Of a stretch of 51,579 nt of DNA, positions 9,624 to 31,192 are shown piece by piece (the stretch's first letter is position 1; every line of letters begins with the position of its first letter). Below the pieces are notes generated by a model. The model made no database searches, had not been told where the DNA came from, and worked only from the letters and a program-made list of their open reading frames with translations. Origin of the DNA: an uncultured Hyphomonadaceae bacterium (GTDB lineage Bacteria > Pseudomonadota > Alphaproteobacteria > Caulobacterales > Hyphomonadaceae); the NCBI GenBank assembly GCA_938049795.1, contig CALLCD010000186.1, positions 1 through 51,579 on the forward strand. The letters are read 5' to 3'. The position numbers were made by a program, and so were the translations under genes.

Positions 9624-9627
9624 TGAT

Positions 9628-12756: not shown

Positions 12757-14025
12757 ATGTTAGGACTTAGAGCTGCAGCACTCGTAGGGGTCGGTCTTGC
12801 TGCACTGACAGCACAATCAGCAACCGCGCAGGAATTTTTCAAGCGCGACCGGAATGTCGGCGTTTTGGAGCGGCCACAGCCGGAATTTGATCCGGAGCCG
12901 GTTCGCTTGGGCGCAATTGATGCACGGCCTTCGCTTGGTCTTGGCGGATACTATATAGACAATGTGTTTGCGACCGCAGACAATGAAGCCAGCGATTTCG
13001 CTTTTACCATCCGTCCCGAAGTTGACTTGCGGACCACATGGTCACGTCACGAACTGGGGGCAAACGCCGGCGTCGAGCATTTCGAGTTTATCGACGAAAG
13101 CTCCGAGAGCGTAACCAATTTCAATGGTGGTGTGCGCGGACGTCTTGATGTCACCCGCGACTTCAGCGTTACGGGCTTCGGCTTTGGCCGTCGGCGGCAT
13201 GAGCAGCGCACGCAGATCTCTATTCTGGACGAGTTCGGTGAGCCGGTCCGCGTCAACGAGTTTGGCGGCGGCATCAATGGCACCTATGAGCGCGACCGGA
13301 TCCAGCTGCGGCTTGGATATGATTTGCGCGACCAGAACTTCCGCGATGTTGAAACCACAACAATTGGCGATATTGATCAGGACTTCCGCGACAATCTGCG
13401 CCACACGGTCACAGGCCGGGCCGCTTATGCCGTAACGCGCGACTTCGCCGTGTTCACACAGGCCAGCTATTTCACCCGCGACTTTGACAACCTCACTCCG
13501 CTGCCTGGCGGTGTTCTGGCGAGCCGCGACTCCGATGGCTTTACGGTACAAGGCGGCATCAACTTTGAACTCGCAGCCCCCTTCCGAGGCGACATTGCGG
13601 TCGGCTATCTCGAAGAAAACCGCGACTCTCCCCTCTTTGCCGATATTTCCGGCCTGAGCGTGGATGGTCGTTTGCAATGGTTCCCAACCCGTCTAACGAC
13701 ACTTACGCTGACCGGATCTCGCCGGACAACAGATGTCGGTCTGATCGAAGCGGCTGCGGCCACCTCCAACAGCGCCAATCTGCGGGTCGATCATGAATTG
13801 CGCCGCAACTTTACGGTCTATGCCGATGGCGGTCTGTTCGACACCGAGTTTGAAGATTTCGACCGCGATGACACCTTCTTCGATGTCGGCTTTGGTGGCA
13901 TCTACAAATTCAACAAGCGCATCCACCTTGAAGCGTTCTACCGTTACACCAATCGTGACTCCTCGATCCTAACCGAAGAGTTCAACCAGAACATCGTTGG
14001 ATTTGAGCTACGGTTCCACCCGTAG
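12757..14025 (+). CDS. Outer-membrane beta-barrel protein (polysaccharide-export-associated porin candidate)
   Basis: Signal peptide MLGLRAAALVGVGLAALTAQSATA|QE. The body shows alternating amphipathic strands rich in Y/F/G/R/D. The C-terminus is ...VGFELRFHP, with an aromatic residue near the end. Confidence 0.75.
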   Translation: MLGLRAAALVGVGLAALTAQSATAQEFFKRDRNVGVLERPQPEFDPEPVRLGAIDARPSLGLGGYYIDNVFATADNEASDFAFTIRPEVDLRTTWSRHELGANAGVEHFEFIDESSESVTNFNGGVRGRLDVTRDFSVTGFGFGRRRHEQRTQISILDEFGEPVRVNEFGGGINGTYERDRIQLRLGYDLRDQNFRDVETTTIGDIDQDFRDNLRHTVTGRAAYAVTRDFAVFTQASYFTRDFDNLTPLPGGVLASRDSDGFTVQGGINFELAAPFRGDIAVGYLEENRDSPLFADISGLSVDGRLQWFPTRLTTLTLTGSRRTTDVGLIEAAAATSNSANLRVDHELRRNFTVYADGGLFDTEFEDFDRDDTFFDVGFGGIYKFNKRIHLEAFYRYTNRDSSILTEEFNQNIVGFELRFHP

Positions 14026-14076
14026 GTCAAACACCTTTCATAGAGTATATTAGAGTACAGTCCGGAGACCGGTTTC

Positions 14077-16347: not shown

Positions 16348-16386
16348 GCCAAAGAAAAAGCCTGTAAACACAATAGAACGACATCG

Positions 16387-16423
16387 AATCCGGCTTCCGC
16401 AACTGCAGAAGCCGGATTTTGTT
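16387..16423 (+). terminator. Rho-independent terminator after wzc-like gene
   Basis: AATCCGGCTTC (16387-16397) pairs with GAAGCCGGATT (16408-16418). The stem runs into TTTTGTT. Confidence 0.7.
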
Positions 16424-16603
16424 CGGGAAGAGTTCATCTGGACACTTGTCTAACTCTCTTTAGCAAGATGAACGGACCTGCTACTGTTATTATTGAGATT
16501 TTGGGGAAACCAGGAAATTACATTCAAACCCTCAGGCTGGCATTGAACTGGCAAGAGAGCAGCAATTCGGCATTGCCATTGGGACGGGATTTTTCACAGG
16601 CTT

Positions 16604-18133
16604 ATGACGCAAGACACACACACCTTGGGCAGTGACGGCTCCAACCGCGAAACTGATGGCACGCTCGGGCGCGCCTTCAGCTCTGCGGTAAGCTGGAATG
16701 TGGCCGAGATGCTGGTGGCCCAGCTTGTGACTGTGGGCCTCTATTTCTTTCTCGCCACACAAATCCCGCTCGAAGTTTTCGGTGTCTTCTTTGTCGCCGC
16801 CATCCTCGCCGACTTTATATATTTCCAAGGACGCTCCTCCTCGGTTGATGCCATTATGCAGACTAAGGACTTCTCGCAAGAGAACCTGTCATCCGCCTTC
16901 TGGGCCATGCTAGGATCAGTCATCATAATGGGTTTAGGGATCTGCTTGATCAGCCCCCTCTTCGCCTGGGTACAGGGCAACAAGGCTTTCCTCCTATTCA
17001 TGCCCGCGCTCGCACTGACGCTGTTGCCACTTCCCCTCGGAGTGCCCGCGCAAGCCAAGCTTAATCACATACTCGACTTCAAAGGCATTGCCGCACGCGG
17101 GATCACCGCCTCTCTGGCCGGCGGCATCGCAGCTGTGATGGTTGTCTTGTTTACCTCTTTTCCGGAATGGGCGCTCGTCGTACAAAGGGCGGTCAGCACG
17201 ATCTGTTCGGTCGTCTTCCTCGTCTGGCGCGCCAAATGGCTGCCAAGTTTCAAGCTCAAAGCCGGTTTGGCCCGCCGCTTCCTTTCTGATGTCAGCCGCA
17301 TCTTTTTTGCTCAGGGGCTGCATGCCTCGATCCCGCGTATCCTTATCTTCATGATCGGCATTGCATTCGGTCAAGCCGCCGTCGGTGCCTTTGAATGGGC
17401 GCGCCGACTGGCCGAGATGATCTATGGCGCTGTTGCGGCACCGATGGGATCGCTTTGGGTCATTATGTTCAGCCGCTCTGATATGAACACCACCGAGCGA
17501 CAGGAATTGTTCGGACGCCTGACGACCATGTGCGCCCTGATCTGCCTGCCACTGTTTGCGGGCCTGGCTCTGGTATCCTACGATATTATCGAGCTGATGC
17601 TCCCCGACAGCTATGCCGGCGTGGCACCCCTTCTGATGATTTTGAGCTGTATCGGCCTGCTCGCACCGCTATTCTACTTTCGCAATGCCGCGTTCACCGC
17701 GCTCCAGAAGCTCAACTTTCTCGTCGGCCTGGCCATAGTCGATGTCCTTGTCGTCACAGTGATATCTGTGCTGACCATTTTTGTCCTCAAGCTGCGGCTT
17801 GAATATGTGATGCTGGCAATCCTGGCGCAACAGATCGTCACGATTGCCCTCTTCCTGCCAACCCTTTTGACAGCGATGGAATCCTCGCTTGGCAGGATGG
17901 TCATAGCCATCGCGCCGGGCTATGTCGGAACGCTCGCAATGGCGCTTTCGGTGCTCATTGTCACCGGACTGGTCATAGACTTGCCGGTGCTTGCACAACT
18001 GATCGCAAAGATTGCGACCGGCGCGATTGTCTATGCGATTTTCCTGATCTGTTTCCATCGGAACTGGCTGATCTCGGCAGCCGAAATGTTGCTCCCTCGA
18101 TTGAATTCGGACCAAGTTGGACAAGCGGCATAG
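16604..18133 (+). CDS. Second MOP-family oligosaccharide flippase-like membrane protein (ExoT/Wzx-like)
   Basis: 509-aa ORF with about 14 hydrophobic helices. The N-terminal block GRAFSSAVSWNVAEMLVAQLVTVGLYFFLATQIPLEVFG resembles polysaccharide-biosynthesis flippases. Confidence 0.7.
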   Translation: MTQDTHTLGSDGSNRETDGTLGRAFSSAVSWNVAEMLVAQLVTVGLYFFLATQIPLEVFGVFFVAAILADFIYFQGRSSSVDAIMQTKDFSQENLSSAFWAMLGSVIIMGLGICLISPLFAWVQGNKAFLLFMPALALTLLPLPLGVPAQAKLNHILDFKGIAARGITASLAGGIAAVMVVLFTSFPEWALVVQRAVSTICSVVFLVWRAKWLPSFKLKAGLARRFLSDVSRIFFAQGLHASIPRILIFMIGIAFGQAAVGAFEWARRLAEMIYGAVAAPMGSLWVIMFSRSDMNTTERQELFGRLTTMCALICLPLFAGLALVSYDIIELMLPDSYAGVAPLLMILSCIGLLAPLFYFRNAAFTALQKLNFLVGLAIVDVLVVTVISVLTIFVLKLRLEYVMLAILAQQIVTIALFLPTLLTAMESSLGRMVIAIAPGYVGTLAMALSVLIVTGLVIDLPVLAQLIAKIATGAIVYAIFLICFHRNWLISAAEMLLPRLNSDQVGQAA

Positions 18134-18222
18134 TTTGGCGCAACACTTGCTTCGGATTTCAGTGTTAGAGACTTTGGCGATAAACAGGCCTCAACACGTA
18201 TCAGTCAAAAGGAAACGGCATT

Positions 18223-18999
18223 ATGAAAACGGTTTTGCTCGCAGGCGGGTTTGGAACGCGGATCAGTGAAGAGACGAGCATTCGGCCCAAGCCGATGGTT
18301 GAAATTGGCGGTCGGCCAATCCTCTGGCACATCATGCGCCATTATGCCTCCCACGGGCTATCCGACTTTATCATCTGCTGCGGCTACAAATCCGAGTTCA
18401 TTCGCAATTACTTCCTCAACTATCGCAACCATCTGTCCGATTTCACAATCAATCTGAAATCAGGCGAGACCGATTTCCACCACACCGAAGCCGAAGACTG
18501 GACGGTCACCGTGGTCGATACGGGTCTGCACACCATGACCGGCGGCCGGATCAAGGCGGTGCGCGACTTTATTGGAGACGAGCCATTTTGCCTGACCTAT
18601 GGCGACGGCGTCTCGGATGTGGACATCACGGCCCTGCTCGCCCACCACAAAGCGTCCGGACGCGAGGCCACTGTCACCGCCGTCTCCCAGCCGGGCCGGT
18701 TCGGCGCGCTGAGCCTCGATCCGCAAACCGGCGTCGTGCGCGGTTTCCGCGAAAAAGCGGCGAAAGATGGCGTCGTGATCAATGGCGGCTTCTTCGTGCT
18801 GAACCCAAGCGTGATCGACTTGATCGACGGGCCGGACACGGTCTGGGAACGCGAGCCGCTCGAAAAACTCGCCGACAAAGGACAATTGTCCGCCTTCCGT
18901 CATGAAGGCTTCTGGCAACCTATGGACACGCTGCGCGACCGCAATGTGCTCGAAGAGATCTGGCAGTCCGGCAATGCGCCTTGGGCTCCAAAGGCGTAA
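18223..18999 (+). CDS. rfbF: Glucose-1-phosphate cytidylyltransferase
   Basis: MKTVLLAGGFGTRISEETSIRPKPMVEIGGRPILWHIMRHYASHGLSDFIICCGYK... and ...GFWQPMDTLRDRNVLEEIW. This is the classic RfbF sequence, and the 258-aa length fits. Confidence 0.9.
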   Translation: MKTVLLAGGFGTRISEETSIRPKPMVEIGGRPILWHIMRHYASHGLSDFIICCGYKSEFIRNYFLNYRNHLSDFTINLKSGETDFHHTEAEDWTVTVVDTGLHTMTGGRIKAVRDFIGDEPFCLTYGDGVSDVDITALLAHHKASGREATVTAVSQPGRFGALSLDPQTGVVRGFREKAAKDGVVINGGFFVLNPSVIDLIDGPDTVWEREPLEKLADKGQLSAFRHEGFWQPMDTLRDRNVLEEIWQSGNAPWAPKA

Positions 19000-19034
19000 G
19001 GCCGAAACAGGGCTAAGCGCGGACAGAGTTTGAT

Positions 19035-20186
19035 ATGGCCACCAATATCGTCTTTTTCGGCCATGACGCCGCTGACGCTGCCATTCGCCGCCGCATGCGC
19101 TCATTTGCGTCCGATGGCTGCGCGGTGACCGGCTTCATGATGCGCCGCGCAGATCCCAAGCCGACCGAATGGACCAATATAGATTTGGGCCAGACCCGCA
19201 ACGGCGCATTCCGCCAGCGCATCTCCATGATCTTCAAAGGGGCAGACAAAGCGGTGGCCGACGGCGCCGAGGCCCTGCGCACGGCGGATATCTTCTATGC
19301 CCGCAATCTCGACATGTTGGCCTCCGCCTTCCTCGCCAAGCGGAAGCTGAAGCTCAAAACGCCCGTCATCTATGAGTGCCTCGATGTCCACCGGCTCATG
19401 GTCGGCACCGGCCCTGTCGCGCGGACCCTGCGTTTCATCGAGCGCCGACTGCTCAAACGCTGCGCCGGCCTCGTCGTCAGCTCGCCAGGGTTTTTGGGCA
19501 ATTATTTCGAAATCCACCACAAAGGCCTCTACCACGCCCATCTGGTCGAAAACCGGCTGGTCACGGGCGCTGATTACGGTCCCCGTCCAAACAAGCAGGC
19601 AGCCAGAACGAGCGGGCCTTTGCGGCTCGGCTGGTACGGCATATTGCGATGCTCGCGCAGTCTCGACCTTCTGGCCAGCCTCGCCGACACGCTTGGCACG
19701 GGAATCGAAATCCAGCTCCACGGCAAAGTCGCCGCCAATGAAATCCCCAATTTCGAAGAAATCGTCGCAGGCCGCGAAAATATGATCTTTGCCGGTGCAT
19801 ATAAATCCCCCGAAGATCTCGCCCGGATTTACGAACGCTCCGATCTGGTCTGGGCCGGTGACTTTATGGAAGCGGGTTACAATTCGGTCTGGCTCCTGCC
19901 CAACCGCATTTATGAGGGCGGATATTACGCCACCCCCGCCATCGCCCCCGCAGGCACCCAGACCGCCCACTGGCTCAACACACACGCCTGCGGATTTACC
20001 ATAAACGAACCTCTTGAGGACACATTGATCCAACTGGTTCAGCATTTGCAAGAGGTCGGTGTAGAGAACAGCGAAGAGATTCAGCAAAAACGGCAAGTTC
20101 TGCTAGACTTGCCGAGCGAGACATTTATTCAGCCACATGGCGAGATGGGGTCCATCATCGCACATGTATTGCAATCGAGGCTTTAG
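19035..20186 (+). CDS. Glycosyltransferase (GT-B / group-1-like; possibly ExoL-like)
   Basis: 383-aa ORF between rfbF and the polymerase gene. The N-terminus NIVFFGHDAADAAIRRRMRSFASDG and the overall length resemble alphaproteobacterial EPS glycosyltransferases. The family call is from memory only. Confidence 0.6.
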   Translation: MATNIVFFGHDAADAAIRRRMRSFASDGCAVTGFMMRRADPKPTEWTNIDLGQTRNGAFRQRISMIFKGADKAVADGAEALRTADIFYARNLDMLASAFLAKRKLKLKTPVIYECLDVHRLMVGTGPVARTLRFIERRLLKRCAGLVVSSPGFLGNYFEIHHKGLYHAHLVENRLVTGADYGPRPNKQAARTSGPLRLGWYGILRCSRSLDLLASLADTLGTGIEIQLHGKVAANEIPNFEEIVAGRENMIFAGAYKSPEDLARIYERSDLVWAGDFMEAGYNSVWLLPNRIYEGGYYATPAIAPAGTQTAHWLNTHACGFTINEPLEDTLIQLVQHLQEVGVENSEEIQQKRQVLLDLPSETFIQPHGEMGSIIAHVLQSRL

Positions 20187-20188
20187 AC

Positions 20189-21481
20189 ATGACGTCTGCC
20201 AACATAAAGCCCCAATTCGGGTATCAGGAAGTGATGATGCCGCGCCCGCCCGCACAATGGTGGGAGCTGGTGCCTGTCTCATTATGGTTTATCGTCACCT
20301 TTATCCCCTTTCCCTATGATGAATTGCTGCTCTATCCGCTCGCGCTCTATTTTGCGGGCATGTTTGCGTTGCGTTATGATCAGATGGTGCCGCTTGCGCT
20401 GAAATGCTGGCCGCTTTTTCTACTTCCCGCACTGGCAAGCATCTCGATGTTCTGGTCACCCGTCGGCACACAGGCGCTGCGCTTCGGCATCATGATGACC
20501 CTGACCGTCATCATCGCGATCTATATTAGCGGCCGGTTGACGGGGCGACAGATAATATTGGCCGTGTTTGGCGCCTGTGCCTTTTCGGTGCTGATTGCCA
20601 TTCCAGAATCGCGCTCGCTCGACGATCAGATCGGGCTTTACACGCAGAAAAACATCTTCGCGATCCGGATGATGTTGGCCATGCTACTATCGCTGGGGGT
20701 CGCGCTGGACGCCAAACAGCCGATCCTTGCACGCGGCCTCGGCTGGCTCCTGATCCCCGTCACACTCTATCTCGTCCTGATCGCCGAATCCGCAACCGCG
20801 CTCGTCCTGTCAGCCGCCAACCTCCTTGTGCTTGGCTCGATCTGGATGTTCTGGATCAATCTACGGCATATCAGGCATTTGCGGACGCTTGTCCTGTCTT
20901 TGATGTTCCTTCTCATCCTGATCGGGTTTCTCTTGTTCATGAACCTGCCGAACAATGTTTTCGTCCAAAGCGTGCTCGAATCGCTCGGCAAGGACGCCAC
21001 CCTGACCGGACGCACAGATTTGTGGGCCAATGCCTCACGGATCTCCGCCGAGCAGCCCTGGCTGGGTGTCGGTGCAGAAGGGTTCTGGCAGCCCTGGGTT
21101 GGCGAGGCGGAAACGATTCTCGATTGGTCATATAAAGACCCGGGCACCAAATTCTCGTTTCACTCAGCCTATTATGAAGTGCTGGTACATCTGGGCTATG
21201 TCGGGCTTGGCCTGCTCATCTTCCAGGTTGGCTGGTGTTTCCTCAACTGCGTGCGCAGCTGGACCGTAGACCAGAATATTGCCACGTCGATGTTCCTGCT
21301 GATCGGCGTTATCACCCTCATCACCAGCTTCACTGAATCCTATCTCTACAGCGTTCTGGACATCAGCGCGATCCTGTTCTTCTGCGCCGCCATTGTTCCG
21401 ATTTCGCAGTTCGTGCGCATGCGCAAAATGCTGGTCCCAGTGCCGCTCGACCAACCTGCCGCTCCACCTGCACCTGCGTGA
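20189..21481 (+). CDS. O-antigen ligase/polymerase family membrane protein (Wzy-like, ExoQ-like)
   Basis: 430-aa ORF with about 10-12 TM helices. It has a periplasmic loop with the Wzy_C-like pattern GRTDLWANASRISAEQPWLGVGAEGFW. It starts 2 nt after the previous stop, and its own stop overlaps the next gene. Confidence 0.75.
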   Translation: MTSANIKPQFGYQEVMMPRPPAQWWELVPVSLWFIVTFIPFPYDELLLYPLALYFAGMFALRYDQMVPLALKCWPLFLLPALASISMFWSPVGTQALRFGIMMTLTVIIAIYISGRLTGRQIILAVFGACAFSVLIAIPESRSLDDQIGLYTQKNIFAIRMMLAMLLSLGVALDAKQPILARGLGWLLIPVTLYLVLIAESATALVLSAANLLVLGSIWMFWINLRHIRHLRTLVLSLMFLLILIGFLLFMNLPNNVFVQSVLESLGKDATLTGRTDLWANASRISAEQPWLGVGAEGFWQPWVGEAETILDWSYKDPGTKFSFHSAYYEVLVHLGYVGLGLLIFQVGWCFLNCVRSWTVDQNIATSMFLLIGVITLITSFTESYLYSVLDISAILFFCAAIVPISQFVRMRKMLVPVPLDQPAAPPAPA

Positions 21482-22437
21482 CCGCGATGACGGCGATTGA
21501 TGTCAGCGTAATTATGCCCGCATGGAAATCTGCGGCCTTTATCGAACGGGCCATCACATCCGTTTTGGTCCAACAGGATGTTTCGTTCGAGCTTATCATT
21601 GTCGATGATGCCTCTCCGGACGACACCGGCGCCATCGTCAAGGCGGCTGCAGCCAGCGATCCACGCATCATCTATGACCGGCTCGATGAAAATATGGGCC
21701 CCTCTGGCGCGCGCAATCGGGCAATAGAGCTCTCAAATGGGGCATTTATTGCCGTACTTGATGATGATGATGTCATCGCGCCCAACCGGCTGGCAACGCT
21801 GCTCAAGGCGGCTAAGGCGCATACGGCCGACATCATCGTCGACAATATGCAACCCATACACTGGCCCGCAACCGACCCCGGCCAGGAACGGTTTCTCGAC
21901 ATTCCGCCAGACGCCGCCCCGCGCCCGATTTCACTTAAGGACTATATTGACCCCGCCACAGAAAAGCGGCTGGGGCAGGGGCTTGGATACCTTAAACCTC
22001 TGTTCCGCAAAGCAACCCTAGACCGGCTAGGCCTGCGCTATGATCTGAACCTACGTAACAGCGAGGACTTCTATCTGGTCGCGGAAATGCTGGCGCTGGA
22101 CTGCAAAATGGTCCTGATCGCCGATGCCGGCTATTTCTATACGATCCGCGAAGGTTCCTTATCCTATCGGCTCAGCGCTGATTATGCCGAGGCGATTGTC
22201 GAGGCAGAAAGGAGCTTTCGAGCCCGACATGCCATGAAATTTGATCCGCCTACTGCCCGCGCCTCCAAGCGCCAGCTCAACCAGCGACTCGACTATTTTG
22301 CATTTGCAAAACTGGTCGAAGCCTTGAAAGCACGCAATGTGTTCCAAGCAATACGAACCCTCGCCACACATGTCCGTTCACTGCCATTTATGGTTTGGAC
22401 GCTGGCGCAGATCGCCATAAGCAAATTACGCAAATGA
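21478..22437 (+). CDS. Family 2 glycosyltransferase (ExoO/ExoU-like architecture)
   Basis: IDVSVIMPAWKSAAFIERAITSVL...LIIVDDASPDDT...AVLDDDDVIAPNRL. The GTG at 21478 overlaps the previous stop (GTGA). An alternative ATG lies at 21487. Confidence 0.85.
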   Translation: MTAMTAIDVSVIMPAWKSAAFIERAITSVLVQQDVSFELIIVDDASPDDTGAIVKAAAASDPRIIYDRLDENMGPSGARNRAIELSNGAFIAVLDDDDVIAPNRLATLLKAAKAHTADIIVDNMQPIHWPATDPGQERFLDIPPDAAPRPISLKDYIDPATEKRLGQGLGYLKPLFRKATLDRLGLRYDLNLRNSEDFYLVAEMLALDCKMVLIADAGYFYTIREGSLSYRLSADYAEAIVEAERSFRARHAMKFDPPTARASKRQLNQRLDYFAFAKLVEALKARNVFQAIRTLATHVRSLPFMVWTLAQIAISKLRK

Positions 22438-22585
22438 CAATAATCCGTATGACAACGGTAGACATTCAGGATTGCGAGCCCGATTGCAGATACAGACCCC
22501 GCCCGCTTGCATTATTGTGGCGTTGGAAAATATGGGATCAAGGGCGGAGTACCGCGTCCTGATTCAAAAAATGCCGAAAATATTT

Positions 22586-22795
22586 CTAGCCGAAAAAGCG
22601 AAGACCGCAATAAATTACAGTGCCCCAAAACGCGCCACAAACGCCAATGACGAGCAACGCAGATTGCCAGACGGGCCAACGGATTGTGTCGTCATAATAG
22701 ACCACACCGTTTTTCACCGTGCGGGAGTTGGACTTGAATTTGAAGTCGGCAGCGGTATGGGTCGTCGCTGGTAAAGCCTGATTTGTGTCCTGCAT
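22586..22795 (-). CDS. Small (69-aa) C-terminally membrane-anchored protein, divergent from the priming transferase (ExoX/Psi-like by position only)
   Basis: MQDTNQALPATT...WPVWQSALLVIGVCGAFWGTVIYCGLRFFG, with one clear TM helix. A good RBS (AGAGGA) lies 9 nt upstream of the ATG at 22795. The track ORF extends to 22885. I recognise no homology. Confidence 0.4.
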   Translation of the reverse strand: MQDTNQALPATTHTAADFKFKSNSRTVKNGVVYYDDTIRWPVWQSALLVIGVCGAFWGTVIYCGLRFFG

Positions 22796-23260
22796 CTTTC
22801 CGATCCTCTCTTCGCTTTTTCGATTGAGATTCTTTTGTTCTTGCTGGGTTTCCCAGTACAACAAATCCCTCGTCAACAATCCCATATGACATTCAAATAA
22901 TTAAATATGGCCTAAAGAACCTCTTAAATTTACAACGAATCAAATAAAAACTTACTCTACGAAAACAGCCTGCCATACAAACAAACTAGGCTGAATACAC
23001 AAATAGTATAAGGCAAAATTTTGATTATTGGCGTAACGACTTGGTGAACATAGCCAAAACGAAGCGTTAAGATAAATCGGACAAGTAGGCAAATGTCGGG
23101 CGCATATGGCGAATATGAGAGCAATCAACCTCGAAAATGGAGCCAGTTTTTTCGAACGGCGTAACAGATGATATCCAAAATCGGGAACCGTATCACTGGA
23201 AGGCGTCGTCTAAAAACGACATTGGAGAGTGACACTTCGCATAAAACCGCGACTGATGTT

Positions 23261-23304
23261 TCTATTCGCCTGAGTGGAGAAAAGGCTGGGCAGAGGCGAA
23301 TAGA
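23261..23304. promoter_or_regulatory. 11-bp perfect inverted repeat in the AT-rich region upstream of the priming transferase
   Basis: TCTATTCGCCT (23261-23271) and AGGCGAATAGA (23294-23304) with a 22-nt spacer. It lies about 250 nt upstream of the ATG at 23556. Confidence 0.35.
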
Positions 23305-23555
23305 TCGTCTTTACACTTGATTAAGGCTGCGAGAGAAGCGATTAATGAATTGGATCGAGAGACAAGCCCTTGGACAGGGGGCCTCTCAGGTTTTCTGAAT
23401 AGATTGCCTCCTGGGGAGGAAAGCGATCAGGATGTTTCATGACAGCCTCAACTTTGGAGGTTCATGGGGAGTTCAGCGGAAATAGTCCAAGAGTTGGCGT
23501 GGAACTTGTTTGGTACGTGTCAAACTGGTTCAACTTAGTAAATTGGGACAAGTCT

Positions 23556-24251
23556 ATGAAATACGAGTCAGCTGTAGAAAGCAGCGCGAACAGGTCACCA
23601 GCTTCGGCGGAAAATCCGCCAACGACCTATAGCAAGGCATCTCTGAGCACGACCAAACGGATTCTCGATCTCTTGATCGCAATCCCGGTTCTGTTCTTTT
23701 TGTCGCCATTCATGCTGCTCGTAGGATTACTCATCCGCCTGCAAGATGGTGGTCCGGTCTTTTTTGTTCAGGAACGGCGAGGCTTTGGCGGCACGTCTTT
23801 CACCTGCATGAAGTTCCGCACAATGCGCTCCGATGCCGAGGATGTTCTGGGCAACCTGCTTGCGACCAATGCAGATATGGCCTCCGAATGGCGCACAACC
23901 CAGAAACTTCGCGACGATCCGCGGATCACGAAAATGGGCCATTTCTTGCGCAAGACAAGCATTGATGAACTGCCCCAATTGCTCAACATCATCCGTGGAG
24001 AAATGTCCGTGGTTGGTCCTCGTCCAATTGTTGAGGACGAAGTGCGACGCTATGGCGATCACATCAAGAGCTACGATTCCGTCCGGCCAGGCGTAACCGG
24101 CCTGTGGCAGATCAATGGCCGCAATGACACGACCTATGAAGAACGCGTTGCGCTTGATGTCAAATATGCGGAGAATGTATCCGTGTTCAGTGATCTGATC
24201 ATTCTGGCCCGCTCTGTCCCGGCTATCTTGCTGCGGCGCGGCGCATACTAG
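23556..24251 (+). CDS. Undecaprenyl-phosphate hexose-1-phosphate transferase (bacterial sugar transferase, ExoY/WbaP C-terminal-type)
   Basis: KRILDLLIAIPVLFFLSPFMLLVGLLIRLQDGGPVFFVQERRG...KFRTM...DELPQLLNIIRGEMSVVGPRP...PGVTGLWQINGRND. The start MKYES (23556) gives 231 aa, which is ExoY-sized. The track ORF starts at 23439. Confidence 0.9.
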   Translation: MKYESAVESSANRSPASAENPPTTYSKASLSTTKRILDLLIAIPVLFFLSPFMLLVGLLIRLQDGGPVFFVQERRGFGGTSFTCMKFRTMRSDAEDVLGNLLATNADMASEWRTTQKLRDDPRITKMGHFLRKTSIDELPQLLNIIRGEMSVVGPRPIVEDEVRRYGDHIKSYDSVRPGVTGLWQINGRNDTTYEERVALDVKYAENVSVFSDLIILARSVPAILLRRGAY

Positions 24252-24291
24252 GCCACCGCACGACAAATCGGTCCCAAAAGACAGAAACTCA

Positions 24292-24326
24292 AAACGCGTC
24301 TCCCCCTGAAACGGGAGGCGCGTTTT
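24292..24326. terminator. Bidirectional intrinsic terminator between convergent genes
   Basis: A 13-bp stem: AAACGCGTCTCCC (24292-24304) pairs with GGGAGGCGCGTTT (24313-24325), with one G-U pair. It is flanked by an A-run and a T-run. Confidence 0.65.
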
Positions 24327-24366
24327 CTCTGTTGTCAGACAAACGAATAAAGGCCAGACACCGCGC

Positions 24367-25377
24367 TTAGCGCAGGAGCCATTGGCGGATAAAACCCGCT
24401 GCCCAAGTGATATGCATCGTCCCCGAGGCAAGGCCGGCAAGCAGCCCGCAAATTGACTGTTTCTTAAGCGCTATAAAGACAGACGCTGCCAGGAGCGCCG
24501 TCATATAAAACATTGGATAAATAAGAAAAAATGGCCAGACAAAGGCCCCAAGACTGGCCCCGACAAGGCCGAGCAGGTTCACAACCGGCACCAATTGGCG
24601 CAATTTGGGACGCGCTTTGTGCTTGATCAGATTGCGCGCCCGGCCCCGCCCATACGCATAATACTGCTTACCAAGCGCCCTAACGGTCGCGCGCGGAAAA
24701 TAGGATAATCTAATATCCGCATCGAGCCAGATCTTGCCGCCCGCCAGCGCGAGCCGGTGATCATATTCAGCATCCTCATTGTGCGAGAAGCTCTCATCAT
24801 AGCCGTCAATCTTGCGGAAATACTCAATATCAAAGCCCGCATGATGACCATGATCATAATAGCCCGACGCCGTCCCCCCGCGATGGGCAGACCCGCCTGA
24901 TCCGAGCGGCGTGTCCACAATCCACGCATTCGCTTTCTGGAAACAACCCGTCCCCACCGCATCCATACACACCACAACGGAGGCCGCCCCCGTAGCCACC
25001 ATCGCATCGGCCACTTGAGTGACAAAGCCTGCCGGATAGATCGAATGCGCATCACACCGGACAAGATACCGCGTCCCGGCGGGAGCAGATTTCGCGACGA
25101 GATTGATCGCAGCGCTCTGCAAGCGTTTCGGATTGTCGATCACCGACAGATTGGGAAACTCGTCCCCCAGCATACGAACAATCTCGACCGTCCGGTCCGT
25201 GCTGCCGCCATCAGCCACCACAATGGGCACATCCGCCAATCGGGCGTCCCCTGCAAGCAGAGAGCGGATACAGGTCTCGATATGGGCTTCCTCATTGAGG
25301 GTCGGAATCGCAACAAGAATGCTGCGAGCCTCCGCCAAACCCGATTTGTCCGGTTCAGTATGTGTCTGCGTCCCCAT
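24367..25377 (-). CDS. Family 2 glycosyltransferase with C-terminal TM helices (ExoA-like)
   Basis: ILVAIPTLNEEAHIETCIRSLL...VVADGGSTDRT...HNEDAEYDHRL, followed by two or three C-terminal hydrophobic helices. The start is chosen at MGTQT (25377), 10 nt after the GH16 stop. The track ORF extends to 25485. Confidence 0.85.
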   Translation of the reverse strand: MGTQTHTEPDKSGLAEARSILVAIPTLNEEAHIETCIRSLLAGDARLADVPIVVADGGSTDRTVEIVRMLGDEFPNLSVIDNPKRLQSAAINLVAKSAPAGTRYLVRCDAHSIYPAGFVTQVADAMVATGAASVVVCMDAVGTGCFQKANAWIVDTPLGSGGSAHRGGTASGYYDHGHHAGFDIEYFRKIDGYDESFSHNEDAEYDHRLALAGGKIWLDADIRLSYFPRATVRALGKQYYAYGRGRARNLIKHKARPKLRQLVPVVNLLGLVGASLGAFVWPFFLIYPMFYMTALLAASVFIALKKQSICGLLAGLASGTMHITWAAGFIRQWLLR

Positions 25378-25387
25378 CCTGTGCCCC

Positions 25388-26284
25388 TTAGTCCCTCTTG
25401 TCCACCGCGACAGCCTGTCCGGTCTCCTCACCGACGGGTTTAACCCCCGCCCAGTTATCAGAACATTGCGGCGTCTGCAGATCATCAGACCGGCGGAACG
25501 ACATACATTTATAGTCCGCCCTCACCGGCGCAGAAAATGTCGGCGCGCCATGCCATTTATATTGCTGCTGTGTGCCGGTCCACAGGTTCGCAATAATCCG
25601 CCCGGGCGTTTGCGGCACAGGTGTCGTCTCTTCGGGGCGCTCATAGACCAGTTCATTGTCCACATACCAGCGGATCGTCTCCGGCGTCCATTCAAACGCA
25701 TAGAGGTGGAAGTCCTTGGTTGCATCAAACCCGAGCTCATGCCAGAGCGCGGCCCCCTCTTGGCCATTGGTAAACCAGTTCAAATAAATCCGGCGCGTAT
25801 CCTTGCCCAGCACTTCGAAATCAATCTCGTCATGCGGATCGCCAAAATAAGGCCCCGTATGAGTGAAAAACGAGGTGACCAATCCGCTGCCCACAGGCGC
25901 ACGCATCACGACCTCATAGCGGCCAAACCCGTAGCGTCCGCGCCTTTGATATTCGCCGGACGTATACGCATTGGTCGGGCTCGCCTGATCCGACAGCCGC
26001 AGCGACATGCCCTCGGCATCAAACCCGATATGATCGGTCGCCCAGCCCACTTGCATGAAATGCCCGACATTATCGAAATCAGAGCGATACCACCCCTCAT
26101 CATCATGCATATCCTCGAACCAGTTTACGAAACTGGCCCCCGATTTATAGGTATCATAAGACAAATCCGGGCGCACAAGGGGCTTGGGCAGGAGAAAATA
26201 CCCAATAATCAGAACGATCAGCAGCGCAAAAAGCAAAAACCAAACGCCAAACCGTGCCGGAGCTTTGGGAGAATCATCAGCCAT
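25388..26284 (-). CDS. Glycoside hydrolase family 16 endo-beta-glycanase (ExoK-like)
   Basis: N-terminal membrane/signal anchor FGVWFLLFALLIVLIIGYFLLP. The GH16 catalytic motif is DEIDFEVLG. WTPETIRWYVDNELV is also typical. Confidence 0.9.
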   Translation of the reverse strand: MADDSPKAPARFGVWFLLFALLIVLIIGYFLLPKPLVRPDLSYDTYKSGASFVNWFEDMHDDEGWYRSDFDNVGHFMQVGWATDHIGFDAEGMSLRLSDQASPTNAYTSGEYQRRGRYGFGRYEVVMRAPVGSGLVTSFFTHTGPYFGDPHDEIDFEVLGKDTRRIYLNWFTNGQEGAALWHELGFDATKDFHLYAFEWTPETIRWYVDNELVYERPEETTPVPQTPGRIIANLWTGTQQQYKWHGAPTFSAPVRADYKCMSFRRSDDLQTPQCSDNWAGVKPVGEETGQAVAVDKRD

Positions 26285-26657
26285 AAGCAGGTCTTTCCTT
26301 GCGCCATTGCAGCGGTTTCGCGTTCAGATCATTAGATCGCCAGGGTTAAAGCTTGGCAATCATCACCGCTCGAACTTGCAATAGAGGGGCCAGACAGCAG
26401 GCGTCTAGCAGGTTTTGCACCCTGACCCTTTTATCAAGGATCAGAGAGTTTCAACGCTGACACCCCCTGAATATATGAATAAAAGATTAACGCTTGCATC
26501 CGCAGCCGCTTTGTGATGAATGCTCGGCTGGTTTTGAAAGGTGACAGTCTCATCGAGTTGAGGTTTTTAGCGCGCCCAGTGTCTCCATGAACCTGCCGCA
26601 TCTTGAACACATTCAGAGTGTTTTCAGACAGTTCAGTTTACGATTATGGAGTTCCCC

Positions 26658-27233
26658 ATGTTCAGACCCCTACGAACCCTTCTGGTGTCCACGGTTGCGC
26701 TCGCCGCAGCCGGACCGGCACTGGCCGACGACCAGATCCACATTCTCGGCTGGCTCGAGCACGCCAATGTCACCTCGGTCGACATCCGCGTCGATGCCAA
26801 GCTCGATACCGGCGCCAAAACATCCGCCATTCACGCAGAAATCCTCAGCCGTGACGCACTCAACGAAGATGAAGTGCGCGAATTGGGTCTTGAAACCGAC
26901 GATGATGAGGAAATCCTAGACGTCAGCGACGTAGCCGAGGACAATCGCGGTAAGGTCGTTGTGTTCCGGATCTCCAATGAAGACGGCGAAGACCGCATTC
27001 TCGAGCGCGAAGTGATCCGCACCGTGTCGATCAAAAAGCGCGGTGGCGGCGTCGAAAAACGCCCGGTTGTCGAACTGGAGCTGTGCATTGCCGGCATTCT
27101 CGTCGATGGCGAAGTGAGCCTTGCCGACCGGACCACATTCAACTATCCACTCCTGATCGGTCGCGACATGCTTGAAGAGGGTGATATCGCCGTCAATCCT
27201 GACGCTGATTACACCGCGTCCGCTCGGTGCTAG
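26658..27233 (+). CDS. Secreted retropepsin-like peptidase (COG4067 / so-called ATP-dependent zinc protease, RimB-like)
   Basis: Signal peptide MFRPLRTLLVSTVALAAAGPALA|DD. The aspartic-peptidase-like motif is VDAKLDTGAKTSAIHA. The C-terminal block NYPLLIGRDML is present. An acidic insert sits in the middle. GGAG lies 6 nt upstream of the ATG at 26658, and an alternative ATG is at 26646. Confidence 0.8.
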   Translation: MFRPLRTLLVSTVALAAAGPALADDQIHILGWLEHANVTSVDIRVDAKLDTGAKTSAIHAEILSRDALNEDEVRELGLETDDDEEILDVSDVAEDNRGKVVVFRISNEDGEDRILEREVIRTVSIKKRGGGVEKRPVVELELCIAGILVDGEVSLADRTTFNYPLLIGRDMLEEGDIAVNPDADYTASARC

Positions 27234-27302
27234 CGACATAGACACAAGCCAGAGCCAGCGGGCGGGAAACTCGCGGGCTCAGCGCGGGAGGGTACCTCAT
27301 TT

Positions 27303-28889
27303 ATGGTTCGCATGCAAATTCTGATTGTTGTGCTGATCCTGTCCGCGCTCTCCGGGGCCTTGTTCGCCTATAAAGTGACCAAGCTCGGCTTTCCGGTCAC
27401 GCCCAATCAGGACCAGTCCGAGTTTTATGTCGAAGCGCGCGTCTCGTTCACGGGCGGCACCGGCCCTGTCTCCGTCAAAGCCGCTTTGCCCAACAGCGCC
27501 GCCGGATTTGCCGTTCTAGAAACAGATGCGCTGGCCACCGGCTTCGGCGTGCTCGAAGAGGCGGACGAGGACGGCAATGCCATGTTCTTCGAGCAGCGCT
27601 CAGCCGAAGGCCCGCAAACCGTCTTCTATCGCGTTCGCGGCTATCGGGTCGATTCCTCGAACGTGGCCAGATCAGGCGGCCGGACCCCCGAAGCCGTCTC
27701 GCCCTTTGCAACAGACCTGCGCAAACGCACCCTCGGCACCGAACCGACCCCCTTCCTGCTCGCGCTCGATGACATTATTGAGCTTGGACAGTCCCGCTCC
27801 GCCGACGACCGCAACTTTGTCCGCAACACCGCACTTATTCTCGCAGATACCCGCGACGAACGCGTTGAAACACTGATCGAGGATGCGGCAACCGATTTAC
27901 GCGAGCCCGAGCGGCTTCTGGTCACCGTCCTGCAAGCGGCAGAAATCCCCGCCCGCCGCGTTGTCGGCCTTCCCGTACGCGCCGAACAGGCCGCCGTCAC
28001 CCCGCGCATCGCCATTGAAGCCTATTTCGAGGACCAATGGCACCGGATTTCCCCGCGCACCGGCAGCGTCACCACCGATGATGTGTTCATTCCGCTCAGC
28101 TATGGCGAAGCCCCGCTTATCAGCGGCGAAGGCACCATCGGCGAGCCGGACATCAGTTTCAGCGTTCGCAATGTCATCAATGACCGGCTCGAACACGCGC
28201 TGTGGACCAGCCGCGCGGACGCCCCCATTGTCAGCTGGGTATCGCTTCTGTCCCTACCGCTAAGTACGCAAATCGTATTCAAAGCGATTTTCCTCGTCCC
28301 CATTGGCGCTCTGGTCATCGCCTTCTTGCGGCAAATGGTTGGTGTCAGCACATTCGGCACCTTCATGCCGGTCCTGATTGCGCTGTCTTTCCGCGAAACC
28401 GGGCTGTTTAACGGGATCGGTCTCTTTGTCGGACTGGTCGGCGCGGGGCTATTACTGCGCGCCTACTTCTCAAAGCTACATCTCTTATTAGTACCGAGGC
28501 TAACGGCAGTGCTGGCCATTGTCACCTTGCTCATGGCCTTCATCGCGCTTTTGGGCAATGCCGCAGAATTTCCGATCGGCCTGTCCATTTCGCTCTTCCC
28601 GCTGGTGATCCTGACCATGACCATCGAGCGCATGTCCATCATGTGGGAAGAAGTCGGCGCACGCGAAGCCCTGATCCGTGGTGCAGGCTCAATCATTGCG
28701 GCGATCATCGCCTTCCTCATCGTCTCAAACGAGCGGATCGAATATCTCGCCTTCGTCTTCCCCGAATTGCTTCTGATCATCGTGGCGCTGGCCGTCCTGC
28801 TTGGTGGGTATAATGGCTACAAACTGTCCGAATATCTGCGCTTTAACATGTTCGGCCAGAAGCTACCCGGCCTCGAGGACACCGAATGA
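27303..28889 (+). CDS. Inactive-transglutaminase-like domain fused to a 7TM module (UUP1-like membrane protein)
   Basis: 528-aa ORF. It has an N-terminal TM anchor, a roughly 290-aa soluble domain with a TGase-like block LLVTVLQAAEIPARRVVG, and then about 7 hydrophobic helices. The entire protein contains no cysteine. Confidence 0.8.
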   Translation: MVRMQILIVVLILSALSGALFAYKVTKLGFPVTPNQDQSEFYVEARVSFTGGTGPVSVKAALPNSAAGFAVLETDALATGFGVLEEADEDGNAMFFEQRSAEGPQTVFYRVRGYRVDSSNVARSGGRTPEAVSPFATDLRKRTLGTEPTPFLLALDDIIELGQSRSADDRNFVRNTALILADTRDERVETLIEDAATDLREPERLLVTVLQAAEIPARRVVGLPVRAEQAAVTPRIAIEAYFEDQWHRISPRTGSVTTDDVFIPLSYGEAPLISGEGTIGEPDISFSVRNVINDRLEHALWTSRADAPIVSWVSLLSLPLSTQIVFKAIFLVPIGALVIAFLRQMVGVSTFGTFMPVLIALSFRETGLFNGIGLFVGLVGAGLLLRAYFSKLHLLLVPRLTAVLAIVTLLMAFIALLGNAAEFPIGLSISLFPLVILTMTIERMSIMWEEVGAREALIRGAGSIIAAIIAFLIVSNERIEYLAFVFPELLLIIVALAVLLGGYNGYKLSEYLRFNMFGQKLPGLEDTE

Positions 28890-29869
28890 GGCTGGTGCCG
28901 AAACTTGCCGCGCCGTGGCGTCTGAAGGCCAATCACATATTGGGCATTAATGGCCGCAATCGCGACTATGTGGCCCCGTTCAATGACCGCCGCTTCTATC
29001 ATCTGGTGGACAATAAGCTGACCACCAAATCTATGGCGCTCAAAGCGGGCGTCACCGTGCCGAAACTGATCGGACGTGTGGACTATACCGGACAGGTCAA
29101 ATCACTCCCCGACATGCTCAAAAATGCCGGAGACTTCGTGATAAAGCCAGCGCGCGGGGCCGGCGGCGGCGGTATCATTGTCGCCGATGGTGTCGACGAG
29201 AACGGGCTGCGCAAAGCCAGCGGCGCACGCATGGTCTGGCCCGAGGTCAAATTCCACATCCAGAACATTCTGTCCGGCATGTATTCGCTCGGCGGCGACG
29301 GCACCGACATTGCTGTCATCGAGGAGCGGCTCTATCCGCACTCGATTTTCAAGACACTGGCCTTTTCCGGCGTGCCCGATGTCCGCGTCATCGTGTTTCG
29401 CGGCGTGCCGGTAATGGCAATGCTGCGCCTGCCAACCTCCGAATCCGACGGCAAAGCCAATCTGCATACGGGCGGGGTCGGCGTGGGCATTGATCTGCCG
29501 ACGGGGGTCACGACCCTTGCCGTCCAGCATGACAATACAATCGACAAACACCCCGACTTCCTGACCCCGCTGACCGGCCTGCAATTGCCCGGCTGGAGCG
29601 ATGTTATGGCGCTCGCTACGGACATTGCCACCGCCGTCCCCGAGCTTGGCTATGTCGGCGTTGATGTGGTGATCGACGAAGTGCGCGGGCCGACCCTGCT
29701 CGAGCTCAATGCGCGCCCCGGCATCGCCGTCCAGATCGCCAACCGAAAAGGCCTCTCCGCCCCGCTCAAAGCGCTCGCCCAAATGGATGAAATCCCCGAA
29801 GGCCGTGAGGTCCGCATTGCGCTGGCCGAAAAACTATGGACCGAGGCGACCCAGCCGAAACCTAGCTAG
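28886..29869 (+). CDS. RimK-related ATP-grasp ligase (alpha-L-glutamate ligase-like protein)
   Basis: ATGA overlap with the upstream gene. The N-terminus ILGINGRNRDYV and the blocks DFVIKPARGAGGGGI and VGVDVVIDEVRGPTLLELNARPG fit a RimK-like ATP-grasp fold. There is no signal peptide. Confidence 0.85.
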   Translation: MRLVPKLAAPWRLKANHILGINGRNRDYVAPFNDRRFYHLVDNKLTTKSMALKAGVTVPKLIGRVDYTGQVKSLPDMLKNAGDFVIKPARGAGGGGIIVADGVDENGLRKASGARMVWPEVKFHIQNILSGMYSLGGDGTDIAVIEERLYPHSIFKTLAFSGVPDVRVIVFRGVPVMAMLRLPTSESDGKANLHTGGVGVGIDLPTGVTTLAVQHDNTIDKHPDFLTPLTGLQLPGWSDVMALATDIATAVPELGYVGVDVVIDEVRGPTLLELNARPGIAVQIANRKGLSAPLKALAQMDEIPEGREVRIALAEKLWTEATQPKPS

Positions 29870-30317
29870 ACCGCGCAAAAAACGCTGCATAGAACGCCTG
29901 CGCCTCGTCCGCCATCAACCCCGTCTCGACGCTCACACCGCCCGCCCGCAACCGGTCAAACCCGCCCGCACCATTCGGATGCACATCCGCAATCGGACAC
30001 ACCAGCCGCGCAATACCCGCCTCCAGCAACAGCGCCGAACACGCCGCCCCGCCCGCCGACCGCGCACGGCATGGCTCAAGCGTGACATAAGCCGTCGCCC
30101 CGCGCGCTGCATCCGCTGCCAGCCCACCCAGCGCCAAAGCCTCGGCGTGAGCGGTCCCGCCGTCTCCAGTTGCCCCTTCCGACAGCACACGCCCATCAGC
30201 TCCAACAAGCACACAGCCCACCGCCGGATTCGCCCCCGTGCGCCCCGATTGCGCCCTGGCAAGCGCAAACGCCCGCACCATCATCGCACGATCTGCCTTG
30301 GAGAACGCGGCGCTCAT
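29862..30317 (-). CDS. Stand-alone RibD-like cytidine/deoxycytidylate-type deaminase domain protein
   Basis: 151 aa. Zn-binding motifs HAE (TAHAEALAL) and PC...C (TLEPCRARSAGGAAC) are present. No reductase domain follows. The start overlaps the purU stop (ATGA). The 3' end overlaps the convergent ATP-grasp gene by 8 bp. Confidence 0.75.
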   Translation of the reverse strand: MSAAFSKADRAMMVRAFALARAQSGRTGANPAVGCVLVGADGRVLSEGATGDGGTAHAEALALGGLAADAARGATAYVTLEPCRARSAGGAACSALLLEAGIARLVCPIADVHPNGAGGFDRLRAGGVSVETGLMADEAQAFYAAFFARSS

Positions 30318-31192
30318 GCAAACACCACCGTCCGCTGCCCGTTAAGGAAAATCCGCCCCTCCGCATGCGCCGCCACAGCGCGCGCCAATGTACGCGCCTC
30401 GATGTCGCGCCCCTGCGCAATCATTTTCGCAGGCGTCGCGCGATGGTCCACCGGCTCGACTTGCTGGGCAATGATCGGCCCTTCATCAAGATCAGCCGTA
30501 ATGTAATGCGCCGTCGCCCCGATCAGTTTGACGCCTTGCCTGTACGCCTGATGATAGGGCTTTGCGCCCTTGAAACTTGGCAGGAAGGAATGGTGGATAT
30601 TGATGCACCGGCCTTGCAATTGCCGACACATATCGTCCGACAAAACCTGCATATAACGCGCAAGGATCACCAGCTCGCTGCCGGTCTGCGCGATGATCTC
30701 GGTCAATTTGGCTTCGGCAGCAGGCTTTGTCTCGGCCGTGACCGGAATATGGATGAAAGGCAGATTATCCCGCTCGGCATGCCATTTCGCATCCATATGG
30801 TTTGACACAATCGCCGCCACATCAATGCCAAGCCGCCCGCGCCGATAGCGATAGAGCAAATCGTTCAGACAATGATCAGCTTTCGACACCAGGATCAGCG
30901 CTTTGGGCTTTTGCTGCGACGGCCGACATGAGACTTGCATGTCGAGCCGCCCCGCAAGAGCCTCAAGATCGGCCTTGAACGCATCCGGATCAAGCGTGCG
31001 GTCCTGATCGGTAAACTCCGAACGGATAAAGAACATCCCCGTATCCGGATCACCATAATCATGGCTCTCGACAATGTTCAGCCCGCGCTCGGCCAGAAAG
31101 CCCGTCACCGCAGCGAGAATGCCGACGCCATCCGGGGCCGTGCAGCGCAGAATATGATTGTCTCCCTCCGCCGTCTCGACCTGTCCGATCAT
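30314..31192 (-). CDS. purU: Formyltetrahydrofolate deformylase
   Basis: 292 aa. An N-terminal ACT-like domain ([30 protein letters not shown]) is followed by a formyltransferase core ([20 protein letters not shown]). Confidence 0.9.

Follow-up and report, generated by a model that had tools for sequence, protein, structure and literature searches.

What is the function of the three adjacent genes at 26646-29869 of contig CALLCD010000186.1, and does their place beside an exopolysaccharide (EPS) locus say anything about it? The contig, 51,579 nucleotides (nt) long and referred to here as the 51.6-kb window, comes from an uncultured marine alphaproteobacterium of the family Hyphomonadaceae. In an initial annotation, made from the letters of the sequence, the genes had been flagged as an uncharacterised trans-envelope module with a possible link to EPS. 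Our analysis identifies them, with near certainty, as a copy of rloABC, a recently named envelope-stress operon, and its main value is corrective.

The ORF listing of the window contained three open reading frames (ORFs) on the plus strand, at 26646-27233, 27303-28889 and 28886-29869. The 69-nt spacing between ORF1 and ORF2 and the ATGA shared by ORF2 and ORF3 (28886-28889) can be read directly from the sequence, just as they were first described. Hidden Markov model (HMM) searches confirmed every family that the initial annotation had named. ORF1 matched PF05618 (Zn_protease) at 1e-25, ORF2 matched PF14400 (Transglut_i_TM) at 6e-24 and PF14402 (7TM_transglut) at 1e-83, and ORF3 matched PF14397 (ATPgrasp_ST) at 5e-76 and passed TIGR02291 ('alpha-L-glutamate ligase-like protein') with 357.2 bits against a cut-off of 314.2. 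The best NCBIfam models were those of RloA1/2/3 for ORF1 and of the 'osmotic stress tolerance membrane protein RloB' for ORF2.

The rlo ('retropepsin-like osmotic stress tolerance') operon of P. aeruginosa was described by Lormand et al. (mBio 2025; PMC12239564), and no second paper on it turned up in our literature search. In that study, which cites Iyer et al. 2009 for the ATP-grasp amidoligases, RloA, RloA2 and RloA3 were found to be secreted, dimeric retropepsin-like aspartic peptidases (structures 9g58 and 9g59) that are required for hypo-osmotic tolerance, biofilm formation, beta-lactam tolerance and cell shape. In low-salt medium the rloA1-3 triple mutant dies, and it is impaired in biofilm formation, in beta-lactam tolerance and in cell shape; deletion of either rloB or rloC suppresses the defects of the triple deletion (PMC12239564). 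In vitro, RloA cleaves runs of at least eight Glu via a basic substrate channel, and a disulfide is specific to the periplasmic orthologues (PMC12239564). The earlier statement that the substrate and phenotype of such a triad are unknown is thus out of date for the phenotype, which has been published together with structures, in vitro poly-Glu cleavage and NCBIfam models, and stands for the in vivo substrate.

In P. aeruginosa PA14 (rloB PA14_41710, rloC PA14_41730) and in P. fluorescens the genes stand in the order A-B-C on one strand and have the same three Pfam architectures as in the window (PMC12239564). Along with this gene order, the window has the D-T-G-A motif, leader, Cys pair and conserved basic channel residues of RloA, the RloB architecture of an anchor, a periplasmic dead-transglutaminase domain and a seven-transmembrane (7TM) bundle, and an RloC that passes TIGR02291, all as in Pseudomonas. 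The names that homologues carry in public databases are inconsistent: RloA homologues are called 'RimK/LysX family protein' or 'ATP-dependent zinc protease family protein', though they are aspartic peptidases, and RloB homologues appear as 'UUP1 family membrane protein' (mislabelled entries P0137-P0146, P0190, P0007 and P0024).

The N-terminus of RloA, MFRPLRTLLVSTVALAAAGPALA followed by DD, has two Arg, a hydrophobic core and A-L-A when read by eye and by hydropathy, and a hydrophobic leader is present in all RloA homologues from 25+ genomes. The signal peptide first proposed for ORF1 is supported by both the sequence and its relatives; in the structure model this end has a low predicted local distance difference test score (pLDDT). 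The D-T-G-A motif, also pointed out at the outset, is present as KLDTGAK with D50 as its Asp. In an alignment of 27 diverse homologues K48, D50, G52, A53, R135 and R158 were invariant and T51 nearly so (at least 90%), and the motifs of the window protein align with the K-L-D-T-G-A, R-P-V and D-R of 9g58 and 9g59. From this motif context we infer that K48, R135 and R158 are equivalent to K46, R114 and R137 of RloA-Pa, which coordinate poly-Glu. The two Cys columns conserved in the homologues from the 25+ genomes are occupied here by C143 and C191, the Cys pair that PMC12239564 gives as the disulfide of the periplasmic orthologues.

The structure prediction agrees with this assignment. The AlphaFold 2 (AF2) model of RloA (pLDDT 84) superposes best on the solved RloA and RloA2, and its Foldseek ranking was 9g59 (RloA2), 2pma (Lpg0085) and 9g58 (RloA) at E ~1e-10, followed by HIV-1 protease; the same three entries were the sequence matches in the PDB. 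Lpg0085 of Legionella pneumophila (DUF785), second-best with an E-value of 1.4e-10 and a TMt of 0.82, has the same PF05618 fold and is a structural-genomics protein without an assigned function and without an acidic insert. Unlike the Pseudomonas proteins, mature RloA of the window is strongly acidic (40 D/E vs 19 K/R) and has an acidic insert of ~30 amino acids that is predicted to be disordered.

For ORF2, an N-terminal anchor, a soluble transglutaminase-like domain and seven transmembrane helices had been proposed, and hydropathy, Pfam and the AF2 model all bear this out. Hydropathy gave an N-terminal hydrophobic helix, a soluble domain of ~270-290 amino acids and a hydrophobic C-terminal third with seven helices. 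In the model (pLDDT 77), residues 2-26 form an N-terminal helix and residues ~27-293 a beta-rich plus alpha/beta domain; a helical bundle (~320-501) and a short C-terminal helix follow. Because there are 1+7 transmembrane helices, the soluble domain is predicted to be periplasmic and the tail cytoplasmic, in agreement with the published topology (PMC12239564). RloB contains no Cys in its 528 amino acids, as had been noticed; however, this lack is a family trait, shared by 58 of 118 full-length homologues, and the family has no conserved Cys column.

By Foldseek the soluble domain of RloB resembles the transglutaminase-like 'putative cysteine protease' 3isr of Cytophaga hutchinsonii (E 6e-9), and an RloB profile searched against PDB sequences found no more than a marginal match, to a transglutaminase (E 0.023). 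It has the same beta-sandwich and papain-like core as 3isr and the Transglut_core enzymes but differs from them in being fused to a 7TM bundle and in lacking Cys, and the domain has no invariant Cys, His or Asp column among 17 diverse homologues. An active transglutaminase or papain-like thiol enzyme was accordingly rejected, RloB having neither a Cys nor an invariant Cys-His-Asp triad. The conservation lies elsewhere: ~60 invariant columns were found in the 7TM bundle and tail vs ~8 in the soluble domain. They include the motifs FGTFMPVL, TMTIERM, FPEL and YNGYKLxEYxRF and the charged, intramembrane Arg/Glu residues R364, E365, R386, R399, E442, R443 and E488, and the cytoplasmic tail has the conserved motif G-x-Y-N-G-Y-K-L-x-E-Y-x-R-F at residues 501-514. 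The C-terminus of RloB was also considered as a glutamylation target, as in ribosomal protein S6 (RpsF), and rejected, since among 118 homologues its last residue varies (A in 26, E in 23, R in 16, others in the rest) and the prediction puts the tail in the cytoplasm.

RloC has neither a hydrophobic segment nor a Cys, and the earlier view of ORF3 as a RimK-like ATP-grasp protein without an export signal holds. None of the positions conserved to at least 95% in 74 RloC sequences deviates in the window protein. Among them are KP..G..G.G, GVPD.R, GKANLH.G and LE.NARPG, which we take to be ATP-grasp/RimK-type nucleotide, Mg and substrate motifs. Its likeness to the RimK domain proper is partial (PF08443 1.6e-8; TIGR00768 44.3 bits vs a cut-off of 143.4), and a sequence search of the PDB with RloC gave no match.

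RloB homologues number >4,200 at E<=1e-10. The closest genome is an uncultured Hyphomonadaceae metagenome-assembled genome (MAG) with 90% RloB identity, and the nearest named genus is Henriciella (43-45%). RloB occurs in Alpha-, Beta- and Gammaproteobacteria, Bdellovibrionota, Myxococcota and Desulfobacterota-type MAGs; hosts outside the Gammaproteobacteria include Hyphomonadaceae, Nitrosomonas and MAGs labelled Rickettsiales, Bdellovibrionota, Myxococcota and Desulfobacterota-type 'Deltaproteobacteria'. This host range is wider than the gammaproteobacterial emphasis of PMC12239564. We surveyed synteny in 80 genome loci carrying RloB (numbered with L), in 78 of which the linkage of rloA could be assessed, the rest being cut by a contig end. 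The synteny of the triad expected in the initial annotation was found in full for rloB and rloC, with rloC directly 3' of rloB on the same strand in 80/80 genomes, and in part for rloA, which was directly 5' of rloB in 59/78 loci. As 19/78 loci have rloBC without a linked rloA (L025, L030, L037, L038, L044, L050, L053-L059, L066, L069, L072, L075, L077 and L078), the conserved core is rloBC. Hosts of the rloA-less loci are Steroidobacter, Lysobacterales, some Chromatiales and 'Deltaproteobacteria', and the genes found 5' of rloB there are unrelated (AidB-type acyl-CoA dehydrogenase, FAD mono-oxygenase, GyrB and GT9). By analogy with RloA2 and RloA3 of P. aeruginosa, the peptidase of these genomes may be encoded elsewhere.

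A gene of the AstE_AspA_cat family (PF24827; succinylglutamate desuccinylase/aspartoacylase-type zinc deacylase) was tightly linked in 7/72 loci, in six of them on the same strand. All seven loci are gammaproteobacterial (Litorivivens, Porticoccaceae, Hahellaceae, Oleiphilus, Oceanococcus and one unclassified MAG). The deacylase was rejected as a substitute for rloA, which is also present in 7/7 of these loci. Judged from gene linkage, it appears to be a facultative fourth member of the system; deacylation of Glu/Asp, the activity of this enzyme family, fits a Glu-based product.

The best explanation overall, and in our view a probable one, is an rloABC operon in which a Glu-rich product made by RloC is presented by RloB and trimmed by RloA. 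The cytoplasmic RloC, a RimK-related ATP-grasp amidoligase, would assemble, at the expense of ATP, a Glu-rich peptide or tail with alpha linkages. RloB, its obligate membrane partner with eight transmembrane helices, would carry, move or present the product on the periplasmic side; activity probably resides in the charge-bearing conserved 7TM bundle, and RloC may dock on the conserved tail. Periplasmic, disulfide-stapled and dimeric RloA would then cleave the poly-acidic product and hold its level in check. The unprocessed product would be harmful to the envelope, and loss of rloB or rloC would therefore suppress the loss of the proteases. The output would be envelope and osmotic homeostasis, that is, cell shape and tolerance of hypo-osmotic and cell-wall stress, and not polysaccharide modification. 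To the separate steps of poly-Glu synthesis, export and trimming, which are drawn by analogy, we give about an even chance. The compartment logic of the initial annotation is upheld: the ligase is predicted to stay in the cytoplasm, the peptidase to be secreted, and the membrane protein to expose its dead-transglutaminase domain to the periplasm. Its proposal of extracytoplasmic trimming of a ligase product is in essence the working model of Lormand et al. 2025 and agrees with the rloB/rloC epistasis. Synthesis of a Glu polymer by RloC, and the translocation or presentation of this polymer by RloB, are inferred.

Several points weigh against this explanation. The window proteins are distant orthologues from an alphaproteobacterial host, with an identity to the gammaproteobacterial proteins of ~25-27% for RloA and ~35-40% for RloB. 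ORF1 stays under the NCBIfam cut-offs of RloA3 (94 vs 210 bits), RloA2 (88 vs 250) and RloA1 (82 vs 280; NF052262-4), and ORF2 stays under that of RloB (291 vs 900 bits; NF052267). These models are of the 'equivalog' and 'exception' types with high cut-offs, and we interpret the shortfall as phylogenetic distance, not as another architecture. The loci that lack a linked rloA indicate that the peptidase is not obligatorily encoded in cis. By Foldseek the RloB 7TM bundle had no credible PDB or transporter relative, the matches to RND pumps having a probability of at most 0.08. The signal peptide and topology are taken from sequence, hydropathy and AlphaFold, and poly-Glu synthesis and export would follow from the RimK analogy and the in vitro specificity of RloA, not from an activity of RloB or RloC. 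Finally, the Pseudomonas authors themselves also weigh a peptidoglycan-centred explanation (PMC12239564).

The sole unusual feature of this rloABC copy, confined to the alphaproteobacterial lineage, is the acidic insert of RloA. It spans residues ~65-99, of which 15 in 35 are D/E, has a conserved core E-T/S-D-D-D-E-E and separates the strand that follows the active site from the one after it. The insert is absent in the Pseudomonas and Legionella structures and in every non-alphaproteobacterial homologue compared. Its length is ~12 amino acids in Henriciella/Hyphomonas, ~30 in the window clade and 60+ in some relatives, while the distance from DTGA to RPV is 41-60 residues in most homologues, 80-88 in the window clade and up to 112 in others. 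Across the alphaproteobacterial homologues compared (P0152, P0153, P0165, P0172, P0175, P0177, P0185 and P0189) the acidic loop is a rapidly expanding low-complexity region, and near-poly-Glu runs such as EDEEEEEVEEE occur within it. AlphaFold gave a short helix and then a low-confidence loop (pLDDT 53-72). Of the acidic insert as originally delimited, the first stretch is indeed an insertion, whereas 'NEDGEDR' lies in a hairpin found in all homologues. The insert might be a pseudo-substrate of a poly-Glu-cleaving enzyme or a plain low-complexity acidic loop of a marine protein.

The coordinates of the operon and of the features discussed here are collected in Table 1. The second ATG of ORF1, at 26658, is more likely to be the start of rloA than the first, at 26646, for three reasons: a GGAG stands 6 nt before it, the first ATG is missing in the closest relative (L002), and the public gene call, made on an ENA metagenome contig identical to the window (L001), uses the same start. 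With this start the divergent intergenic region measures 373 nt and not the 361 that had been reported. The ATGA overlap suggests that rloC is translationally coupled to rloB. Conservation of the intergenic region between the window and L002 is limited to an AT-rich block at 26482-26498, AAAGATTAACGCTTGCA, inside GAATATATGAATAAAAGATTAACGCTTGCA, and to the ribosome-binding site region; the intergenic regions of L003 and L004 do not align with that of the window. The block AAAGATTAACGCTTGCA is a candidate promoter or operator element. A simple scan of 26200-30400 found no sigma-70-like promoter, and terminator-like sites were no commoner in this range than in shuffled sequence. The rloC stop overlaps by 8 nt (29862-29869) the 3' end of a convergent ORF of the cytidine/deoxycytidylate-deaminase family (29862-30317, minus strand), so there is no space for an intrinsic terminator between the two. 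The deaminase is 140 amino acids long by the public gene call, not 151. Window scans revealed no tRNA or Rfam features, and the 51.6 kb contain no paralogue of RloA, RloB or RloC; P. aeruginosa differs in having RloA2 and RloA3. As greedy longest-ORF calling yields spurious antisense ORFs in GC-rich DNA, such as 25040-26332 (+), the genes used for the window were Pfam-verified ORFs and the public gene calls of L001.

Table 1. Features of the rloABC operon in the window, and of related loci where an L number is given.
Feature	Position	Strand	Remarks
Divergent intergenic region, GH16 (exoK-like, minus strand) to rloA	26285..26657	.	Contains AT-rich block shared with L002
rloA, secreted retropepsin-like aspartic peptidase, 191 amino acids	26658..27233	+	PF05618 1e-25; longest ORF from 26646
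Sec-type signal peptide of RloA (predicted)	26658..26726	+	MFRPLRTLLVSTVALAAAGPALA, predicted cleavage after A-L-A
Catalytic D-T-G-A of RloA (D50 in the 191-residue form)	26805..26816	+	27-sequence alignment; aligns with 9g58, 9g59
Lineage-specific acidic insert in RloA, residues ~65-99	26850..26954	+	Absent outside alphaproteobacterial homologues; mostly disordered by prediction
rloB, inner-membrane protein, 528 amino acids	27303..28889	+	PF14400 and PF14402; 0 Cys; AF2 model
rloC, cytoplasmic RimK-related ATP-grasp ligase, 327 amino acids	28886..29869	+	TIGR02291, PF14397
Polysacc_synt-type flippases	7073-8551 and 16547-18130		
AstE_AspA_cat gene downstream of rloC	L017:12475-13842, L040:12691-13758, L060:12486-14297, L063:5557-7029		
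AstE_AspA_cat gene upstream of rloA	L022:7628-9373, L064:8100-9428, L073:8089-9291		

The position of the triad led to the idea that it is an accessory of the EPS locus, which shares a divergent promoter with the exoK/exoA-like genes and modifies or regulates the polysaccharide, for example through amino-acid decorations trimmed by RloA. The triad does directly abut a genuine Wzx/Wzy-type cluster at ~7.0-26.3 kb of the window. The cluster comprises two flippases, GT2s, a Wza-like Poly_export protein, a BBP2_2 porin, a Wzc-like Wzz/GNVR/AAA_31 kinase, Wzy_C, an NTP-transferase, Bac_transf, GT2, GH16 and a calcineurin-like phosphoesterase, and GH16 (exoK-like), GT2 (exoA-like) and Bac_transf (exoY-like) adjoin the triad. 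Its content suggests two side-by-side polysaccharide pathways or one composite locus (~7073-26284), and the low GC of 22001-24000 (0.49 vs 0.54-0.62 elsewhere), inside the cluster just upstream of Bac_transf, may mark a horizontally exchanged or variable part of it. Moreover, the AT-rich block is common to the window and L002, Pfam gives PF14397 the title 'Sugar-transfer associated ATP-grasp', and the P. aeruginosa rloA1-3 mutants are biofilm-defective (PMC12239564). However, when 11 EPS proteins of the window were used as queries against ±10 kb around the triad in the 80 genomes, homologues were present, as a raw count, in only four: L002-L004, the three genomes most closely related to the window, which form its clade (RloB identity >=68%), and the unrelated MAG L074. 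L002-L004 also keep the unrelated downstream genes (deaminase, purU, gpmA and AGE), and since the clade thus conserves both flanks, the adjacency is plain local synteny. When the 135 genes flanking the triad most closely in 72 loci were scanned with Pfam, 140 families were found and no EPS family recurred, GH16 occurring in 2/135, both of the window clade. In Henriciella, the nearest cultured relatives, and in Hyphomonas MAGs the triad is flanked by an acyl-CoA synthetase and an SDR, and the intergenic region is unconserved in L003 and L004. The proposed EPS link, which had been tied beforehand to how often the triad occurs away from polysaccharide loci, does not survive these counts as a general rule. 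The EPS adjacency is a chance outcome of local gene order and does not amount to a general link; an accessory role is largely refuted in general, though a co-regulation confined to this clade may exist, and we consider such a role very unlikely. A related possibility is that the Hyphomonadaceae rlo system has diverged, the acidic loop of RloA acting as a pseudo-substrate or auto-cleavage switch and the operon having been recruited to the divergent control region shared with the exo-like genes. This we regard as quite unlikely; if true, such recruitment would couple periplasmic poly-anion turnover to capsule or EPS production.

The main rival is a peptidoglycan-centred role, in which the dead domain of RloB binds stem peptides or regulates a peptidoglycan synthase or hydrolase and RloC and RloA tune it. 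Mutants of P. aeruginosa are defective in cell shape, are sensitive to beta-lactams and lyse under hypo-osmotic conditions, which led the authors to propose a peptidoglycan link, and in V. cholerae the operon belongs to the VxrAB cell-wall-damage regulon (PMC12239564); the papain/transglutaminase-like fold of the RloB periplasmic domain is also a peptide-binding one. We nevertheless judge this role unlikely, as it is the highly conserved 7TM bundle, not the soluble domain with its few invariant columns, that seems to be the functional core, peptidoglycan-synthesis genes do not recur among the neighbours, and the runs of at least eight alpha-Glu for which RloA is specific are not found in peptidoglycan. 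A cytoplasmic poly-glutamylation of RpsF of the RimK/RimB type would agree with the partial RimK-domain likeness of RloC, with the homology of the peptidase to RimB (NF052261, 40.3 bits) and with the label 'RimK/LysX family protein' that NCBI gives to some RloA homologues. In the RimABK/RimB-RimK system (P. fluorescens; RimK also of E. coli), too, a poly-Glu-cleaving, retropepsin-like peptidase accompanies an ATP-grasp enzyme of the alpha-L-glutamate-ligase-like kind, and RimB-RimK is the probable evolutionary source of the rlo operon (PMC12239564). Yet the scores lie far under the cut-offs (143.4 bits for TIGR00768, 200 for NF052261) while TIGR02291 was passed, and, unlike in the all-cytoplasmic RimABK, which acts on RpsF, the window peptidase carries a signal peptide together with the Cys pair of the periplasmic orthologues, and a membrane protein is interposed. 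RloB lies between the two genes in 80/80 genomes, and in P. aeruginosa a rimB deletion showed no genetic interaction with rloA mutants (PMC12239564). The RimK/RimB reading was rejected on the missed model cut-offs, and its chance of being right is extremely small. An anti-phage defence or mobile-element cargo module came into consideration as the three genes are compact and stand beside a variable polysaccharide locus with a low-GC segment at 22-24 kb, and nothing specific speaks for it. PADLOC gave no match for any of the three proteins, the GC of the triad (0.57-0.60) is like that of the remainder of the window, and the contexts are stable, chromosomal and of the housekeeping type across many phyla, so that this reading is effectively rejected and its chance is negligible.

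What the locus offers is thus a known type of system, rloABC, in a new alphaproteobacterial member with minor lineage-specific variation. To the work in Pseudomonas the survey adds the rloB-rloC core, the wider host range and the focus of conservation in RloB. Selection on RloB is concentrated on the 7TM bundle and tail and not on the dead transglutaminase domain, which marks where the missing activity of the system should be sought.

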